This document shows, one piece after another, positions 26,308 through 46,022 of a DNA stretch of 48,065 nt. Position 1 is the first letter of the stretch. Every line of letters begins with the position of its first letter. Below the pieces are notes generated by a model that saw only the letters and a program-made list of their open reading frames with translations, had not been told where the DNA came from and made no database searches. The stretch comes from Planctomycetota bacterium (GTDB lineage: Bacteria > Planctomycetota > Planctomycetia > Pirellulales > Lacipirellulaceae), in assembly GCA_039190745.1 (NCBI GenBank), contig JBCCXZ010000026.1, positions 1-48,065 on the forward strand. The letters run 5' to 3'. The position numbers and the translations under genes were made by a program.

Positions 26308-29300
26308 TTAACCGCGGAGGAAAGCGAAGAGGTCAGCGACCTCCTCCAGCGACAGCTCGTTGAGCAGCCCTTGGGGCATAACGGAAGTCGCGCTGGGCTG
26401 CACGCTCTCGATTTCGTCCGGGCCTAGCTCAAGCTGCCGGCCGTCCGAGAATTGGACGAGCAACGCCCCGCCAGGCTTCTCGACGACGATACCCGGGTAG
26501 GTTTTCCCGTCGGTTGTGACGACGACCTTGCTGGCGTACTGGTCTGAGACAACGTGCGAAGGGTAGACAATGGATTCGAGGATCTCCTTGTCCTGGAATC
26601 TTTTGTTCACATGAGTGAGGTCGGGGCCCAACCCCTCCCACTCGCCGGCGTAGCGGTGGCAGGCGGCGCATTGGGCTTTGATGTAGGCGGCCCGTCCCTG
26701 GCGCGGGTTGCCCTCTTTTCCCGTCGGGCTCCTTAGGAAGCTCAGCAGTTCTTCGTAGCTCCAGCGGTCTCTGCCCGAGTCGACCGGCAGCTCTGCGGGG
26801 GGCGCGTCCGGGAAGTTCGCGGCGTAACGCTGCTGCCAGCCGACCAATCGGGTCTGCCACTGGTCTTTCGAAGGTTGGCCGCCCGCCCAGTGGTCGAGGA
26901 GTTGCACGGCTTCGCCTCCGCCGCTCTCCTGCAGTTTTAAGCCCTGCAGGATTACCTGGCGGTATGGCTCGGGGTCTGAGGGCCGTTGATTGACGGCGCG
27001 GAGAGAAGTGAGCACCTCGCGCGCCGCGACGCCTTCCACGGTCTTCAGAGAGTCGACCAGCACCCGCCAGTTCTCGCCTTGGGGGTTCTGAGTCAGGCTC
27101 ATCGCGACGGTTTCGCGCTGCTGCGGTTCGTTCTGGTAAAGGGAGTGCAGGTACTGATGCGCTTGGCTGTTGCCACTCCGACCGAGCACCGCGGCGATAC
27201 CCACCCGGAGCCGGCGGTGCACGTCGGCCTTCTCTGCGAGCGGCTTCACGCGGCGGTCCAACGCGATGAGCTTCTCGATTAGGTCTGGCGGCAGTTCTTG
27301 AGGTAGCCTCGCCAAGACCGAGAGGGCTGATGCGGGCCACTCGTGGCCGCTGAGCAGCACGCGGTCTCGTTCAGCAGGAGTGAGCTTAGTGAAGAAGTCG
27401 CGGGCGAACGCTTCGATGTAGCCGCTCACGCTGTAGCCGCCTTCGGCTCCCGTTGTCGACTCGAAGAACTTGAGGAACGCGAATTTGGAATCAGTGTTCC
27501 ACCCGCGGTTAAGTCGCGCGGCGTGGCCGGCTAGGTGGATCTTGTCTGCCGTGGGCATCTCGGCTGCGACTTGGGCCGAGAAAGCCGTGGCCGCAGGTCC
27601 CCACTGGAGCTCGGTAAGCAGCCGAACGATCTCGCGGTCGACTTGGAGCGTGTTGGTTGGGTAAAGCTTTGCGACGACGGCCGCGAGGCGGTCTTGGGAA
27701 TCTGTGGCTGGCTCGGACCGCGCGAGACAAAGTTGGGCCACCCGTAGAGCACCAAGGATGTCTCGGAACGAGTTCGCTTCGGCTTGCTCCAGGATCGTCA
27801 CGCAACGGTCGATGATCTCAGCGGAGGTGGTGCTCGAAGGGTTCGTGGTGATGAGCGCGACGCTGCCGACAAGAAAGGCCCGATTGTCGGTGGATTCTGC
27901 AAGAACAAGCTCGCTCCATTGATTGGCTGGTAGGGTCTCTAGCAGCCTGCGGGCGGCGTTCGTTACAAATCGATCGTCCTCACCCAAGAGGGGCAGCAGC
28001 TTGTTGGGGTCGGCCTGAAGGCCGGTGCGTGCCATCGATTCGCAAGCCACGCGGCGCACTCGTGCGTCTTTATCCCCCAGCAAGCTTGAGAGCAGGCCCG
28101 GGTCTGCCGATTCCCCCAGCATGAGCGAAGCTGCTTTGGCTCGAACTTCCGGGCGGGGGTCTTTGGCGAGAGGCCTCAAGGTATCTAGCCGAGGGTAGGG
28201 GCCGATCGTGGCGAGGAGGTGCAGAGCCGAGACGCTGTCTGCGGGGGTTCTCTCGGGATCGGCTGCGACCGACGCCAGCGAGGTCGCCCAACGGGCTCCC
28301 GCTGCTCTTTGCACTTGCCGGATCCGCCGGCGTGCCCAGGCCGAATTGGGCTGCGGGTTTTGGATCGCTTCGGCAACAGTGCCAGCCTGTACGGAGGGTG
28401 GGGCGGAGGGTTTCCCCGTCCAACGCACGCGGTAGACGCCGCCGTCGGTGGCTCGGCCGCCGGTTGTGAAATAGACGGCCCCATCGGGCCCGACGGCCAG
28501 GTCGGTGACGTTGAGGGGTTGGCCGGAGATGAACAGCTCGCTCCGACCGGCGACCGTCGCTCCGTCTGGGCGGAGCCGGACCGCGAAGATCTTGCCGCGG
28601 GCCCAGTCGCAAGCGAGGAGTGCTCCATGGTACTTTTTGGGGAAGACGGTGTGCTGGTAGACCTCGACGCCGGTCGGGGAACCGGGCCCGACTTCGACCA
28701 TTGGCGGCAAGCTATCCAGGTGGTACGAAGGCCACTTCGCCCAGCCGCTCCGCCAGCCGAAGTCGGCGCCGGCGGTCGCGTGGAGGATGCGGGTCGGACG
28801 GTACCAGGGTGCACCGATGTCCCATTCCATGTCTGAGTCGAACGTCACGATGTCGCCGTCGGGCGTGAACGCGAAGTCGTAAGCGTTCCGGAGGCCCGTG
28901 GCTACGACCTCGGTAAAGCGGCCCTGCCGGTCGGTGCGGTAGACGATCCCGCCGGGGGCGGGGATGCCAACGGCGTGGCCACGCGCGTCTTCGTAGCGGG
29001 GCTGAATGAGGTCGCCTTCGTAAGCTTTTTCAAGCAGCCCCGGGATCGGCCGCGGGCTCTTGATCGAGGCGTGGTTCCCAACGATGCCGTAGATCATGCC
29101 GTCCGGCCCGAGCCGCACTGCGTGCGGGCCGTGTTCGCCTCGCGAGCCCTTAAACTGCACCAGCGGACGCACGTCTTCGGCGACCCCGTCTCCGTTGGCG
29201 TCGGTCAGACGGTAGAGAGCAGACCCCGCCGGGCCGCTGCCGACGGCGTAGACGCTGCCGTCCAGAGCGAGCAAGCCTTGAGCGCTCTGAACTTGTCCGC

Positions 29301-41832: not shown

Positions 41833-41865
41833 CGGTGCCGACGGCCGGAATGACTTCTCCACCTG

Positions 41866-41890
41866 GCCCTCCTCACGGAGGGCTCTTTTT
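41866..41890 (+). terminator. Intrinsic terminator
   Basis: GCCCTCC-TCAC-GGAGGGC followed by TCTTTTT, about 35 nt after the stop. Confidence 0.8.
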
Positions 41891-42219
41891 GTGCGCACGG
41901 AGCGGTCCGCCGTGACATGGTGGTGAGTTTGACGGCTGTAACGATTGCGAGACGGCCCCGGCGTCGAATACCGCCTAGAGCCTTTACGCACTACTTGCTT
42001 GCCGCTCGTCGCTCACTTCAACTGGATGCCTGCCAGCAGGGATATTCGCCTACTCACGGTCGTGGATCGGGGGGTTGTGCCGGTGATAGCACAGGTTTTT
42101 GGCGAAGCTGATTTGCTCCGCGTCGGATCGTTCGCAACACTTGCATACGGGGAGAGTCAATCGCTGGCGATAGACCGGCGAGAGACATGAACAACACACA
42201 GCGGGCATGGGGTTGAAGT

Positions 42220-43383
42220 ATGGGTGCGTATCACCTGAAGAAGTTTCTTGTTCTTGCTAGCGCGTTGGCCGCCGCATCGGCGCCGGAGTTGGGTCGCGCT
42301 CAGTGCGACGCGTGTTGCGAGTACGTGCTGAAGTGCCAGACCGTTTACGAGGAGCGCCAGGCTACCGCGTACCGGATGGTGCAAGAGACGGTCTACGAAG
42401 ACCGTACCGTAACCAGGCGCGTGCCGGTGTGGGAGACTCAACAGCGGGAGCGGCGCTACAGCGTGTCGCGTCCGGTGTACGAGACGAGCGTCCGTGAGGA
42501 ACGCTACACCGTGCAAAGGCCGGTGTGGGAAACCCAGATGCGCGACGGCAGCTATAACCGGGTTCGGAACGTTGTCGAGACGAGTCAGCGCGAGGAACGC
42601 TACACCGTTCAGCGGCCGGTATTCGAAACTAGCGAGCGCGAAGAAGCCTACACGGTGATGCGTCCTGTAATCGAGACGGTCGAGCAGGAGCGTCGCTATA
42701 CGGTGATGCGTCCGGTGACGAGCTACCGCACGCAGTACGCTGACGCTGGGGGCTGCTACGTGAATCAGGTCTCCTACGTCCAGCAACCGTCTCGGGGCGC
42801 CGTGCGTTGGGTGCCTGGTTCGCAGATGGTCAACCCGCTCACCGGCGCAGTGCAAGTGCAGAGGCCCGGCCTGGTCTGGGCTTCGACGCAACCGGCTCCG
42901 ACGCCTGTGGTGAACCAGGTCTACCGGCCGAACATCGTGGCTCAGCAGGTGCCGGTTACTCAGTACTGCCCACAGGAAGTTGTGCAGAAGGTGCCCGTCC
43001 AGGTCACCCGGATGGTCCCCCAGCAGTGCGTCCGCAAGGTGCCCGTCAGGACCTGCCGGATGGTGACCGAAGAGCGTGTCCGCATGGTCCCGGTGCAGAC
43101 GTGCCGGAAGGTCGTCGAGCGGGTCGAACGCCAAGTGCCTGTTCGTGTTTGCCGGATGGTCACGGAAGAGAAGGTCCGCAAGGTCCCCGTACAGACCTGC
43201 CGGATGGTGACCGAAGAGCGTGTGGAGCCCTACCAGGTGCGTGTTTGCCGGATGGTGGAGCAGCAAGACACGGTGCGGGTGCCGGTGACGACCTGTCGTA
43301 AAGTTCCGGTGACCTACACGTACCGCGTTCCACGCACCGTTACGATGCGTGTGCCGGTTTCGTCCTGTGGCTGCGGTGCGTGA
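42220..43383 (+). CDS. Secreted YTV/VPV-repeat Cys-Pro-Val-rich structural protein (planctomycete envelope type)
   Basis: Signal peptide; 16-aa repeats RYTVQRPVWETxxREE in the N-half and VPVxTCRMVTEExVRK in the C-half; Cys clusters at both ends. Confidence 0.85.
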   Translation: MGAYHLKKFLVLASALAAASAPELGRAQCDACCEYVLKCQTVYEERQATAYRMVQETVYEDRTVTRRVPVWETQQRERRYSVSRPVYETSVREERYTVQRPVWETQMRDGSYNRVRNVVETSQREERYTVQRPVFETSEREEAYTVMRPVIETVEQERRYTVMRPVTSYRTQYADAGGCYVNQVSYVQQPSRGAVRWVPGSQMVNPLTGAVQVQRPGLVWASTQPAPTPVVNQVYRPNIVAQQVPVTQYCPQEVVQKVPVQVTRMVPQQCVRKVPVRTCRMVTEERVRMVPVQTCRKVVERVERQVPVRVCRMVTEEKVRKVPVQTCRMVTEERVEPYQVRVCRMVEQQDTVRVPVTTCRKVPVTYTYRVPRTVTMRVPVSSCGCGA

Positions 43384-43390
43384 GTCTGGC

Positions 43391-43458
43391 GATTCCGACA
43401 GGAATCCCACGGCTATTGTTGCCTCGCGAATGCCGAGGCTCGGCGTGCTTTTCGCGAG
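43391..43458 (+). other. 3' hairpins downstream of the repeat-protein gene
   Basis: GATTCC-GACA-GGAATC (43391-43406); CTCGCGAA...TTCGCGAG (43423-43458) enclosing GCCGAG/CTCGGC; no clear U-tract. Confidence 0.4.
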
Positions 43459-43572
43459 CTGGTCGGCAGGTTGTTGACGCTCTTGCTAGGTTCCTGACAG
43501 ACTGTGGCCGTGGCACCGGGCATATCTTCGGGAGCGGACTGGTTTAGCAAACCGGCAAGAGAACAGCATCGG

Positions 43573-44517
43573 ATGGAGGCAACCAACTCAGAGCCGGCGA
43601 CGCTTGGTCAGGCCTATACGCCCGCGATGCTCGCCGAATGTGTTCAGGCGCCCGTGGCTGCAATCCGCCACTGGCACCGACGCGGGCGGCTCATTGCCGA
43701 GTACACCGTTGCGGGCCTCGCTTACTTCGGTTTCGAGGAGGCGTTAGTGGCTCGCCGCTTGACTTCTCTGCTCAAGGCGGGCTGCAGCTTACGGCAGATC
43801 GATCAACGGGTCTCCCGATTGGAAAGAGCGTGCGCGGGATCCCAGCGTGTATTGAGCTTGCCAGCGGTAGTCGTCGTTGGCAGCGATTTCGTGCTGCGCA
43901 CCGACGAGGGCCTCATCGAGCCAGGCGGGCAGAGGCTGATGTGGGATGTTCCCAACGCCGATTCCGATGAGACGCTGCTGCGACTCCACGACGGTGACCA
44001 CGACGACCAGAGGGAGCAGCTCGAATGGGAGCTTGTCGACGAAGTGGATTCGGAGGCTGTTCGGTTGGAGCGAGAGGGCCGGCTCGACGATGCCGCCGAG
44101 GCCTACCGAGCTGCGATCAGGGAGCTGCATGAAACAGTATCGAGCCAGTCGATCGCGGCTCTGAACGTTTCGCTGGCCGCTGTGTTGCTACGTGCCGGTG
44201 AATCCGGGGCGGCCCGCGAACGCTACTTCTGCGCTGTTGAAGCTGACCCGGAGTCTCTTGAGGCTCATGTCGGGCTGGGCAGCGTGTTTGCCGCGACTCG
44301 GTTTCCTGGGTTGGCAGTAGTCGCTTTCCAGAAAGCATTGGATCTCCACCCCGAGTACCCGGACGCGCATTTCCACATGGCCGGCGCTCTGGACCAACTA
44401 GGCGAGACGGAGCCGGCTGATCAGCATTGGCGGGCGTTTGTGAGGCTGGCGCCGGACTCACCGTGGGCTCAGACCGCTCGCACGCGGCTTTCTTCGTTCC
44501 GGTCCGAAGCCCGGTAG
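43573..44517 (+). CDS. MerR-like HTH plus tetratricopeptide repeat protein
   Basis: YTPAMLAE......AIRHWHRRGRL...YFGF...L..LLKAG.SL; TPRs AVEADPESLEAHVGLG and ALDLHPEYPDAHFHMA. Confidence 0.8.
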   Translation: MEATNSEPATLGQAYTPAMLAECVQAPVAAIRHWHRRGRLIAEYTVAGLAYFGFEEALVARRLTSLLKAGCSLRQIDQRVSRLERACAGSQRVLSLPAVVVVGSDFVLRTDEGLIEPGGQRLMWDVPNADSDETLLRLHDGDHDDQREQLEWELVDEVDSEAVRLEREGRLDDAAEAYRAAIRELHETVSSQSIAALNVSLAAVLLRAGESGAARERYFCAVEADPESLEAHVGLGSVFAATRFPGLAVVAFQKALDLHPEYPDAHFHMAGALDQLGETEPADQHWRAFVRLAPDSPWAQTARTRLSSFRSEAR

Positions 44518-44642: not shown

Positions 44643-46022
44643 ATGCCTGAGATTCTCTTCCACTACGAACGGGTCAACCCGTCGAGTTGGGCGTATCTTT
44701 CGTCGTTCCTAATGCTCGCTCTGTTCTTCAAGTTCTCCCGCATCTGGAGCGTGCGGAACCTCGACCTTCTGCTGCTGATCTCGTTGGCGCCAGGTCTGCT
44801 GTTGGTGCACTTCAGCCGTATCGATCCTTCGGCGATGTCCGACCCCGTGGGTATCGAGCACCTGGGTTTCTTGTGGCTGTTCGGCTCTTGTGCGTTGCTG
44901 CTGACCCGGCTGCTGATCGATTCGGCCATGGTGCGGCGGCCGCTGCTGGAGCCTAACCTCAACGCGGCAGGATTGCTCTTCCTCAGCAGTGCGCTCATGT
45001 TTTTTTTGATGGCGAACGTCGTCACCGGCGAGCCGACGGAGGCGGGGATGCGCCCAGCCCGGCCGGCGAACGAATTGCGAGAGGAGACAACCGAAGGGGG
45101 CCAAGCCAGCACGTTCGCGACCGATGGCCCGGGCTACTGGCTGGTTTACCTGCTGCCCCGCATTTCGACTCAGACGGTCCTCGAAGCCGGTGCCGATGAG
45201 CCCGCCGACTCGGCGGCAGCCGCGGGCGACGACCGCCGGAGGCGTATCCGCGAGATCACATCGCGGCTTGTTTCGATCCTCTCGCATTCGATGATCGTTC
45301 TCGGGGTCATCGCCATTGGCTACTACCATTTCCAGAATTTTGTTGCCGGCGTGGCCGCGGCAACGATGTACCTGATGCTGCCCTACACGGCGCTCTGGAC
45401 CGGCGACCCGACGCACGCGCTCCCTTCGGCGCTGCTCGTGGCGGCGGTGCTGCTCTACCGCAGGCCTGTGCTTGCCGGGATGATGATCGGTCTCGCCTCG
45501 GGCACGTCGTACTACCCCGTGTTCCTGCTGCCGCTGTGGTGCAGCTACTACTGGGACCGCGGCGTGAAGCGCTTCGCCACCGGAGTGCTCATCATGCTGG
45601 GCGTGCTGGTCGCGTCGATGGCTGTCACGGGCACGACGTGGGAGGTCGTGCAGGAGCGCTTCCAGGCGATGTTTGGGCTCCACGTCCCCAAGTTTGCCGA
45701 CATGGAGGGCGTTTGGTCGCGTTGGAGCCCGTACTACCGGTACCCTATCCTGGCGGCTTTTGTCGTGCTTGCTCTGAGCTTTGTCTTCTGGCCGGTCAAG
45801 AAGAATCTCGCGACACTCATCTCGTGCACCGGGGCCGTCATGGTGGCCGCTCAGTTCTGGCACGCGCACAGCGGGGGTCTCTACGTGGCTTGGTACCTGC
45901 CGCTGTTGTTGCTGACGATCTACCGTCCAAACCTCGAAGACCGCGACGCCGTGCGGATGGTGTCCCAAGGGTGGACGGCAAAGCGTAAGCGGCCGGTCGT
46001 CGAGAGCCGACAAGCTGGATGA
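44643..46022 (+). CDS. Polytopic membrane protein, GT-C/glycosyltransferase-87-like
   Basis: Ten or more TM segments; YLMLPYT, G...GLA.G..YYP.FLLP.W, Y..WYLPLLL patterns resemble lipid-linked-sugar glycosyltransferases. Confidence 0.6.
   Translation: MPEILFHYERVNPSSWAYLSSFLMLALFFKFSRIWSVRNLDLLLLISLAPGLLLVHFSRIDPSAMSDPVGIEHLGFLWLFGSCALLLTRLLIDSAMVRRPLLEPNLNAAGLLFLSSALMFFLMANVVTGEPTEAGMRPARPANELREETTEGGQASTFATDGPGYWLVYLLPRISTQTVLEAGADEPADSAAAAGDDRRRRIREITSRLVSILSHSMIVLGVIAIGYYHFQNFVAGVAAATMYLMLPYTALWTGDPTHALPSALLVAAVLLYRRPVLAGMMIGLASGTSYYPVFLLPLWCSYYWDRGVKRFATGVLIMLGVLVASMAVTGTTWEVVQERFQAMFGLHVPKFADMEGVWSRWSPYYRYPILAAFVVLALSFVFWPVKKNLATLISCTGAVMVAAQFWHAHSGGLYVAWYLPLLLLTIYRPNLEDRDAVRMVSQGWTAKRKRPVVESRQAG

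Follow-up and report, generated by a model that had tools for sequence, protein, structure and literature searches.

A planctomycete YTV-family protein whose two halves probably pair antiparallel in a predicted long two-stranded β-ribbon

We analyzed the gene at positions 42220–43383 on the forward strand of a 48,065-nucleotide stretch of DNA (the window; positions 1 to 48,065 of contig JBCCXZ010000026.1, assembly GCA_039190745.1) from a planctomycete of the family Lacipirellulaceae. Its open frame, which starts at the first ATG downstream of an in-frame TGA, encodes a protein of 387 amino acids belonging to the YTV family. We consider it rather probable (roughly 0.7) that the two halves of this protein, the N arm and the C arm, pair antiparallel in a register in which the numbers of facing residues add up to 414 (i+j = 414), that the chain folds back at a [DN]PxTG turn into a two-stranded β-ribbon of about 170 rungs, and that the product is a secreted rod of the planctomycete wall whose cysteines cross-link neighboring rods. 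An earlier note, made from the letters of the window without database searches, had proposed one very long two-stranded ribbon for this protein; antiparallel pairing is now supported by coevolution, by paired insertions and deletions, and by AlphaFold2, while the closed monomer is still a prediction. By simple arithmetic, 171 rungs of about 0.33 nm would give a rod about 55 nm in length.

The signal peptide is probably cleaved near residue 27, as suggested by its KK, hydrophobic stretch and G-R-A/Q (the slash marking the cut), together with the family consensus A-x-A-Q. The midpoint of the mature chain is then 207.5, and the sequence NPLTG occupies residues 205–209. Prolines recur in the N arm at residues 69, 85, 101, 133, 149, and 165, and cysteines in the C arm at residues 279, 295, 311, 327, 343, and 359; the pairs N205/G209, F135/C279, W103/C311, Y87/C327, W71/C343, and C29/C385 all sum to 414. 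All these positions (the turn, both series, and the register) had been given in the earlier note and proved correct on the translation. Its description of both arms as 16-residue repeats also holds: identity at lag 16 was 0.47 in each arm, against 0.06–0.07 at lags 15 and 17, with a weaker component at lag 8 (0.20–0.29). Local alignment of one arm to the other scored 73, against 46.9 ± 8.4 for shuffled sequences; with the C arm reversed, the score was 67. This weak resemblance is probably compositional.

Homologs were collected by a word-indexed search (851 at E ≤ 0.001, 120 of the 851 listed) and by an exhaustive search (886 cluster representatives, 150 of the 886 listed); the listed homologs, pooled with the query, gave 258 sequences for analysis. 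These were aligned to a profile of the query columns, and mean-field direct coupling analysis (DCA) was carried out on the 188 sequences covering at least 80% of residues 28–385 (effective number of sequences, Meff, 128). Pairs were ranked only if more than five residues apart; the band of i+j from 411 to 417 contains 1227 of the 62128 pairs (2.0%).

Of the 30 strongest pairs, 28 fell within this band: 25 on the sums 412, 414, or 416, including 14 exactly on 414. Among the top 100, 62 were in the band, 54 of them with even and 8 with odd sums. Mean coupling along the 414 anti-diagonal was 0.497 (176 pairs), against a background of −0.002 (standard deviation of 0.216) and 0.061 for the best parallel diagonal. 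Thus, the register put forward from one sequence is the strongest anti-diagonal in the family, and the anti-diagonal that the earlier note proposed to look for in homologs dominates the map. The signal spans the whole length, from 45–369 to 195–220, and ladder contacts reach the turn (195–220, 200–227). The preference for even sums is the signature of an antiparallel β-ladder because direct partners and same-face diagonal neighbors differ by two residues. The signal is not a gap artifact, since 121 sequences with no more than four gaps kept 23 of the top 30 pairs in the band; when the C halves were permuted among those 121 sequences, none of the top 30 pairs and only one of the top 100 remained there. 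Covariation at individual positions of the 188 sequences included charge swaps at 158–256 (ER in 49, QQ in 31, RE in 16), 142–272 (ER in 92, QQ in 32), 152–264 (ER in 115, RE in 5), and 147–267 (RD in 75, MP in 27). Residue-by-residue antiparallel pairing of the N and C halves appears well supported by this covariation.

A purely local fold of the 16-residue repeats, a β-solenoid or a cross-β meander with 8-residue strands and one coil per repeat, seems hardly credible. Ice-nucleation proteins and lacewing egg-stalk silk combine 16-residue repeats with such a local pattern, and the strict period of both arms with its weaker lag-8 component would suit it. However, a solenoid should show coupling of residue i with i+16, and a meander local hairpins, but mean coupling on the lag-16 diagonal was 0.053 versus 0.497 on the 414 line; nor would such a fold explain why the arms match so exactly in length. 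Scattered pairs at lag 16 (84–100, 100–132) were found, as expected from repeat homogenization.

The antiparallel ladder is further supported by the evolution of arm length. The earlier note had proposed to look for repeats gained or lost in both arms together, and this is what we found, with P0043, P0058, and P0244 as exceptions considered below. Most of the 154 near-full-length relatives have an N arm of 169 and a C arm of 176 residues. Both arms are longer by 16 residues in P0052, P0055, P0071, P0228, P0217, and P0242, and by 32 residues in P0170; both are shorter by 16 residues in P0105, where the deletions of 145–160 and 256–271 lie opposite each other with a sum of 416. In the FastTree phylogeny, the paired changes occur in at least two separate clades and in P0105 alone.

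A second YTV gene was found in the source genome (contig C17 of G000, approximately 27516–28946, minus strand, corresponding to L003:514-1944, minus strand). It encodes a protein of 476 amino acids (P0259), scoring 129.8 bits against PF07639. This protein has repeats of 14 residues and a C arm rich in Cys, and both of its ends carry long Cys-Gly/Ser clusters; its homologs among the 120 matches listed are 267–744 amino acids long. In this second subfamily (121 proteins including P0259), arm length was measured between four landmarks: the N-arm start, a GHWE-type motif, an RVWVP-type motif, and a VCKMVP-type C-arm end. Regular expressions for the landmarks were complete in 50 of the 121 proteins, the C arm being six residues shorter than the N arm in 46 of these 50, and missed the remaining 71. 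They were replaced by landmark hidden Markov models (HMMs) built from the 46 rule-obeying proteins, which placed all four landmarks in 121 of 121. With them, the C arm was equal to the N arm minus six residues in 96 of 121 proteins and in 92 of the 92 in which every landmark scored at least 10 bits. The four landmarks are located independently, so training on rule-obeying sequences cannot force the difference of six.

Ten length classes were present (N arm/C arm): 91/85, 107/101, 117/111, 121/115, 135/129, 149/143, 151/145, 161/155, 163/157, and 177/171, the last being that of P0259. A protein of 641 amino acids from another genome, outside the training set, had arms of 247/241 residues. The loop between the arms varied from 22 to 98 amino acids and showed no correlation with the length of the arms (r = 0.14). 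Arm lengths in this subfamily are without exception odd; hence, every step is even, as a ladder needs in order to keep its two faces. DCA in blocks of 56 residues (92 proteins) placed 19 of the top 30 inter-block pairs at the base and 21 of 30 at the tip on three adjacent even sums, and the two signals translate to one register.

AlphaFold2, supplied with the alignment of 121 gap-poor sequences, predicted the query monomer, as the earlier note had suggested doing, with two near-continuous antiparallel strands closed as a hairpin. The arms form strands 35–109, 112–175, 239–302, and 305–379, and the tip contains the shorter strands 179–187, 192–198, 201–204, 211–214, 217–223, and 228–236. The mean predicted local distance difference test (pLDDT) was 79.8, with 132 residues at 90 or above. 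The breaks at residues 110–111 and 303–304 (43126–43131 in the window) face each other (110 + 304 = 414), show dips in pLDDT, and coincide with one irregular repeat per arm, MRDGSYNRVRNV opposite KVVERVERQ; they may represent a conserved hinge splitting the modeled rod into two segments. For paralog P0259, AlphaFold2 also gave a hairpin, made of two strands of 189 residues each (63–251 and 257–445; mean pLDDT of 72.3).

Antiparallel pairing might instead occur between chains, either in a domain-swapped dimer of extended chains (about 110 nm) or in a head-to-tail daisy-chain polymer, in which each N arm would lie on the following molecule's C arm. The difference is invisible to DCA and to the matching of arm lengths, the long and variable Cys-rich loop of subfamily 2 could serve as a flexible joint, and a polymer would account for the insolubility in boiling sodium dodecyl sulfate (SDS) described in passages of PMC5287468. 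We nevertheless regard this arrangement as quite improbable. A tight-turn-type motif with an invariant Gly and a near-invariant Pro lies exactly at the midpoint; a single [DNE]P.[TS]G motif was present in 103 of the 121 gap-poor sequences, and motifs of the [DN]-P-x-T-G type are strong formers of hairpin turns in designed mini-hairpins. The ladder contacts run up to this turn, AlphaFold2 closes the hairpin in both the query and the paralog, and closure within a chain is, as a general principle, entropically favored.

The closed hairpin was also compared with solved structures. In the PDB, Foldseek gave a single match at E ≤ 0.001, the phi29 tail protein 6qz9 with a TM score of 0.07, followed by long-hairpin pore formers with TM scores of no more than 0.10. 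Among 48,161 representative chains searched with VIA-align, four matched at Z ≥ 2 and none at Z ≥ 5; the best were the HU-like 6lmh (Z 3.3), the anthrax protective antigen (PA) channel 6psn (Z 2.2), and 1ihf (Z 2.1). The ESM Atlas returned YTV clusters only, apart from small alignments to the arms of HU/IHF. Among solved structures, those closest to the model are free two-stranded arms, several-fold shorter, or hairpins stabilized inside barrels. The arms of HU and IHF are, like the query model, free-standing twisted two-stranded antiparallel ribbons without a core, but only 47–49 residues aligned, compared with 2 × 170 in the query; they bind DNA in the cytoplasm and have no sequence relation to it. 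SasG/Aap G5-E repeats and the central sheet of OspA are core-less monomeric β-rods of the cell surface, rich in Thr, Val, Glu, Lys, and Arg and tens of nanometers long, built from small modules of three strands, with the chain reversing direction every few residues. The query differs from them in having a single turn for the whole molecule, with partners up to about 340 residues apart.

These comparisons bear on the possibility that the hairpin is only a subunit of a higher-order sheet, a multi-ribbon rope or a giant β-barrel tube resembling toxin stems or phage tail tubes. Pore-forming toxins and tail tubes (aerolysin, lysenin, the anthrax PA pore 3j9c/6psn, phi29 6qz9) likewise have two long antiparallel strands and a tight turn, and the weak fold matches are all long hairpins from oligomeric barrels or paired arms, HU/IHF among them. 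One face of the ladder is 32% Val and could pack on another ribbon. On the other hand, strands in the toxin and tail-tube hairpins are a few dozen residues long, compared with about 170 in the query, and these hairpins are amphipathic and exist only inside oligomeric barrels. The faces of the query are both charged, without the lipid-facing alternation of polar and apolar residues (mean Kyte–Doolittle values of −0.49 for the even face and −0.89 for the odd face), so it is not a membrane-inserting hairpin. Moreover, no second coevolving band was found in the map, the best parallel diagonal being 0.061 against 0.497, and prolines on both outer edges once per repeat would interrupt edge-to-edge hydrogen bonding. 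We hold a higher-order body to be rather improbable; it is only weakened by the map because DCA cannot detect homotypic contacts (i with i).

The two faces of the proposed hairpin ladder are chemically distinct. Over the arms of the 188 sequences, residues were counted by class of register-414 pair, and the odd and even classes contained, respectively, 3356 and 8 Pro, 462 and 5 Trp, 797 and 136 Cys, 5139 and 1193 Thr, 1999 and 7960 Val, and 1523 and 4273 Arg. In the query, all 19 of the 19 arm prolines are in one class; the even face has V 52, R 33, and E 17, and the odd face has T 28, P 19, E 14, Q 14, and R 12. In a two-stranded ladder, one class of pairs is hydrogen-bonded to the partner strand, while the other has its NH and CO groups directed outward, and proline is tolerated only in the latter. 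The arm prolines, one per strand per repeat, would thus block strand addition at the edges, their class being taken as the non-hydrogen-bonded one.

Membership in the YTV family, which the earlier note had brought up, was evident from the Pfam search: PF07639 matched the protein with an E-value of 3.8e-53 and 177.7 bits, above the gathering score of 21, in seven stretches, all within the N arm. The similarity to the YTV wall proteins extends from sequence to richness in Cys and Pro, predicted secretion, and taxonomic range. The Pfam model covers the N arm only; the family definition includes neither the C arm nor the turn, and no pairing rule. The Pfam matches to Fibrinogen_BP (E 0.51) and Cornifin (E 0.89) were far under their cut-offs and were taken as compositional, and no family of NCBIfam was matched by the protein. 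Articulins and alveolins, proteins of the cortical skeleton with short Val- and Pro-rich repeats, had also been named for comparison in the earlier note; among Pfam families, none but YTV reached significance with the query. Named relatives among the matches listed come from Pirellulales, Thermoguttaceae, and Planctomycetia/Planctomycetota. Of 401 genomes of the phylum, 26 matched PF07639: the source genome, 23 of the 23 from three families of the class to which it belongs, and two others, whose matches were weak; none of 14 control genomes did. Apart from the two weak matches, this range agrees with restriction to the class Planctomycetia.

The studies cited for YTV wall proteins are reportedly those of Hieu (2008), Sagulenko (2017), and Mahajan (2020). 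A full-text literature search found no description of a fold or a structural principle of YTV proteins. For a long time, planctomycete walls have been regarded as mostly protein and rich in cysteine. According to passages of PMC5287468, YTV proteins are major constituents of Gemmata walls that survive boiling in 10% SDS, and passages of PMC8567305 and PMC12673574 place them in wall preparations of R. baltica and Tuwongella. The family is reported as confined to Planctomycetia in parts of four sources (PMC5287468, PMC8567305, PMC12673574, PMC10632474). For P. limnophila, a passage of PMC10632474 lists one YTV-domain protein within a group of essential genes restricted almost only to Planctomycetes and suggests wall rigidity as the role of YTV proteins via their high cysteine content. 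By analogy with this published proteomics of other YTV proteins, a wall location of the query protein is likely.

We propose the following course of assembly. The mature protein would be exported, and the chain would fold back once at the conserved [DN]PxTG turn into a two-stranded β-ribbon rod. The 16-residue repeat (14 residues in the paralog family) would correspond to about one turn of the ribbon twist, so that the Pro/Trp/Met/Cys patches of successive repeats might align on one side of the ribbon. Ribbon twist is reportedly treated by Ho and Curmi (2002), found as a mention in a reference list. The rods would then be cross-linked by disulfides via the periodic Cys and the clusters at the base (C29, C32, C33, C39, C383, and C385). 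Such a disulfide lattice would fit the published Cys-rich, SDS-resistant walls. In chlamydiae, also of the PVC group, the envelope owes its rigidity to disulfide-cross-linked Cys-rich proteins of different folds (the OmcA/OmcB/MOMP complex). This complex may be the closest functional analogy to the proposed lattice; no Pfam domain is shared with it, YTV being the sole significant match of the query.

The arm cysteines are one-sided and stand opposite Trp or Tyr (WC in 106 of 188 sequences at 71–343). In a co-occurrence scan of the 188-sequence family, no Cys pair on the 414 line and no cross-strand or local Cys–Cys pair was enriched, and the cysteines that do co-occur are an effect of one Cys-rich subclade; no sign was seen of local intramolecular disulfides, which the earlier note had named as evidence against its proposal. 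The six-fold Cys periodicity is complete in the query and less complete in most relatives: Cys frequencies per column were 0.49 at 279, 0.15 at 295, 0.58 at 311, 0.39 at 327, 0.66 at 343, and below 0.10 at 359. The terminal pair C29/C385, suggested as a staple, does sum to 414, but the staple is not conserved, as column 385 is mostly N or G and it is C383 that is conserved, in 77% of sequences.

The ribbon architecture could also hold while the arm Cys remain reduced, or bind a metal or ligand together with the terminal clusters, and the rods cohere by non-covalent packing. We regard this as unlikely, though a serious alternative. It would account for the modest conservation of the Cys columns and for a whole clade in which each arm Cys is replaced by Thr, Met, or Val, and one relative and one Atlas YTV cluster carry the name ferredoxin. 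Nevertheless, the protein is predicted to be exported into an oxidizing compartment, and the Cys are confined largely to one face (797 vs. 136) and never face each other, as would be expected of an outward cross-linker. Family cysteine content has, in addition, been linked to wall rigidity (a passage of PMC10632474).

Several observations weigh against the closed, cross-linked hairpin rod, some concerning the structural models and others the sequences. The blindness of DCA and arm matching to hairpin closure is one of them. AlphaFold2 reads the same covariation as DCA and is therefore not independent of it; evidence independent of AlphaFold2 comes from the indel rule, proline parity, and the turn motif. 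The predicted template modeling score (pTM) was only 0.27, a value expected for a long flexible rod, and the single-sequence ESM Atlas model of the query was poor (pLDDT of 0.56). A core-less two-stranded ribbon of this length is without solved precedent and may need partners for stability.

On the side of arm length, 32 amino acids are missing from the C arm only in P0043 and P0058. The deletion falls between two identical 16-residue repeats present in their sister P0011 and may be due to recombination or assembly collapse. P0244 has 44 extra amino acids in the N arm only, its C end being unaligned, while P0003 is frameshifted and P0119 truncated. A divergent clade gave unequal arm estimates (176/163, 169/161, 161/169), the alignment being uncertain there, and the overall correlation of arm lengths in subfamily 1 was only r = 0.53 because most members do not vary. 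In all 25 misfits among the 121 proteins of subfamily 2, one or more landmarks scored under 10 bits. These misfits comprise fragments and frameshifted proteins as well as a divergent clade (P0260–P0269), and in the three that were inspected (P0270, P0307, P0336), the rule predicted the true position of the central motif. Finally, the arm Cys are not universal: their columns are 15–66% conserved, with C359 found almost only in the query, and the divergent clade of P0228, P0170, P0242, and P0217 has VPVQTTRMV-type repeats without arm Cys. In this clade, which is also the one with extra paired repeats, the N-arm partner is Val where other sequences have Trp or Tyr.

A broader claim, for which we would put the odds somewhat short of even, is that YTV proteins constitute a new fibrous class: a core-less ladder of 90–250 rungs, growing and shrinking by paired quantized steps (14 or 16 residues, about 5 nm), with a twist-aligned stripe of patches zipping the rods into a disulfide-bonded, SDS-proof wall. 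If so, the family would provide natural β-sheet molecular rulers and a long-sought architectural principle of the planctomycete envelope. The predicted rod design by itself would likely help to account for the toughness of the planctomycete protein wall. What is new is the architecture and its evolutionary rule, for which the work is computational throughout; that the family exists, where in the cell it lies, and that it is rich in Cys were known before. A rod of about 170 rungs closed by one turn would be unusual in having neither a hydrophobic core nor a coiled coil and in having its length set by paired repeats. It follows that rod length should scale with repeat number and that unpaired, but not paired, repeat deletions should be destabilizing. 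Such a rod might also serve as a scaffold for β-sheet nanomaterials of defined length, with an addressable Cys every 5 nm or so.

The features of the gene are listed in Table 1.

Table 1. Features of the YTV gene and its upstream flank, in window coordinates (pLDDT, DCA as in the text; DSSP, secondary-structure assignment).
Feature	Coordinates	Strand	Basis
Coding sequence of the YTV-family protein (P0001), stop codon included	42220..43383	+	Open reading frame and Pfam PF07639
Predicted signal peptide, residues 1–27	42220..42300	+	KK, hydrophobic FLVLASALAAASA, G-R-A/Q; consensus AxAQ; AlphaFold2 pLDDT <50 for residues 1–30
N-terminal Cys cluster C29, C32, C33, C39, at the putative hairpin base	42304..42336	+	Column 29 is Cys in 50% of 188 relatives
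N arm, residues 35–175, 16-residue YTV repeats (RPVxETxxREERYTVx), predicted ladder strand 1	42322..42744	+	AlphaFold2 strands, DCA i+j = 414
Break in the N strand, residues 110–111, possible hinge	42547..42552	+	DSSP gaps, pLDDT 55–63 at both facing breaks
Tip region, residues 176–238, shorter paired strands flanking the turn (predicted)	42745..42933	+	AlphaFold2; DCA pairs 182–233, 186–227, 195–220
Turn NPLTG, residues 205–209; family motif [DN]-P-x-T-G	42832..42846	+	G209 invariant, P206 at least 90% (121 sequences)
C arm, residues 239–379, 16-residue repeats (KVPVQxCRMVxEExVR) with periodic Cys, predicted ladder strand 2	42934..43356	+	AlphaFold2, DCA
C-terminal Cys pair C383 and C385	43366..43374	+	C383 in 77% of 188 relatives; column 385 mostly N or G
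Terminator-like hairpin past the upstream DUF1579 gene	41865..41884	+	3 sites found vs. 1.1 expected

Regarding the genomic surroundings, the neighbors of the YTV gene encode a HEAT-repeat protein, a DUF1579 protein, a MerR and TPR protein, a GT87-like membrane protein, lipoate ligase, and HisRS; no functional link between them and the YTV gene was seen. We failed to find a sigma-70-like promoter. The terminator-like hairpin after the DUF1579 gene and the functionally unrelated neighbors suggest that the YTV gene forms its own transcription unit. Downstream, the gene at 43504–44517 (plus strand) encodes a MerR-type helix-turn-helix domain fused to TPR repeats, and the one at 44643–46022 (plus strand) a multi-pass membrane protein with a weak match to the GT87 glycosyltransferases (27.9 bits against a cut-off of 25). 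An antisense open reading frame at 42157–43410 (minus strand; 417 amino acids), rich in His, Arg, Leu, and Pro, spans the whole gene and was unsupported in any search; it was rejected as a shadow frame of a G+C-rich repeat gene, the Pfam match and the hundreds of homologs being on the plus-strand frame.

Several observations were made on other members of the family. Some YTV proteins are publicly named ferredoxin, among them relative P0364 and the Atlas cluster “Ferredoxin family protein”; this is likely a misannotation, probably caused by the Cys clusters. Relative P0324 (744 amino acids) combines the Fpg/Nei DNA-glycosylase domains (PF06831, PF01149) and YTV in one predicted protein, which is probably a gene-call fusion of adjacent genes. 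A third type of YTV protein, with 884 amino acids, is encoded at L009:1295-3949 (plus strand; contig C1 of genome G330) and has super-repeats of about 76 residues in both halves. It carries GRWE at residue 422 and RVWVP at residue 477, and its C-terminal portion of about 100 amino acids resembles a tail or sequence from another frame; the two arms seem roughly matched, with ends that could not be fixed by the landmarks used. Most relatives have a low-complexity tail of 60–250 amino acids, rich in Pro, Thr, Ser, Ala, Lys, and Glu, beyond the conserved VPxDxCG end (the region compared in the window was 43384–43503), which might serve as an anchor of the protein. The query itself ends four residues past VPxDxCG, as do some relatives of 387–410 amino acids.

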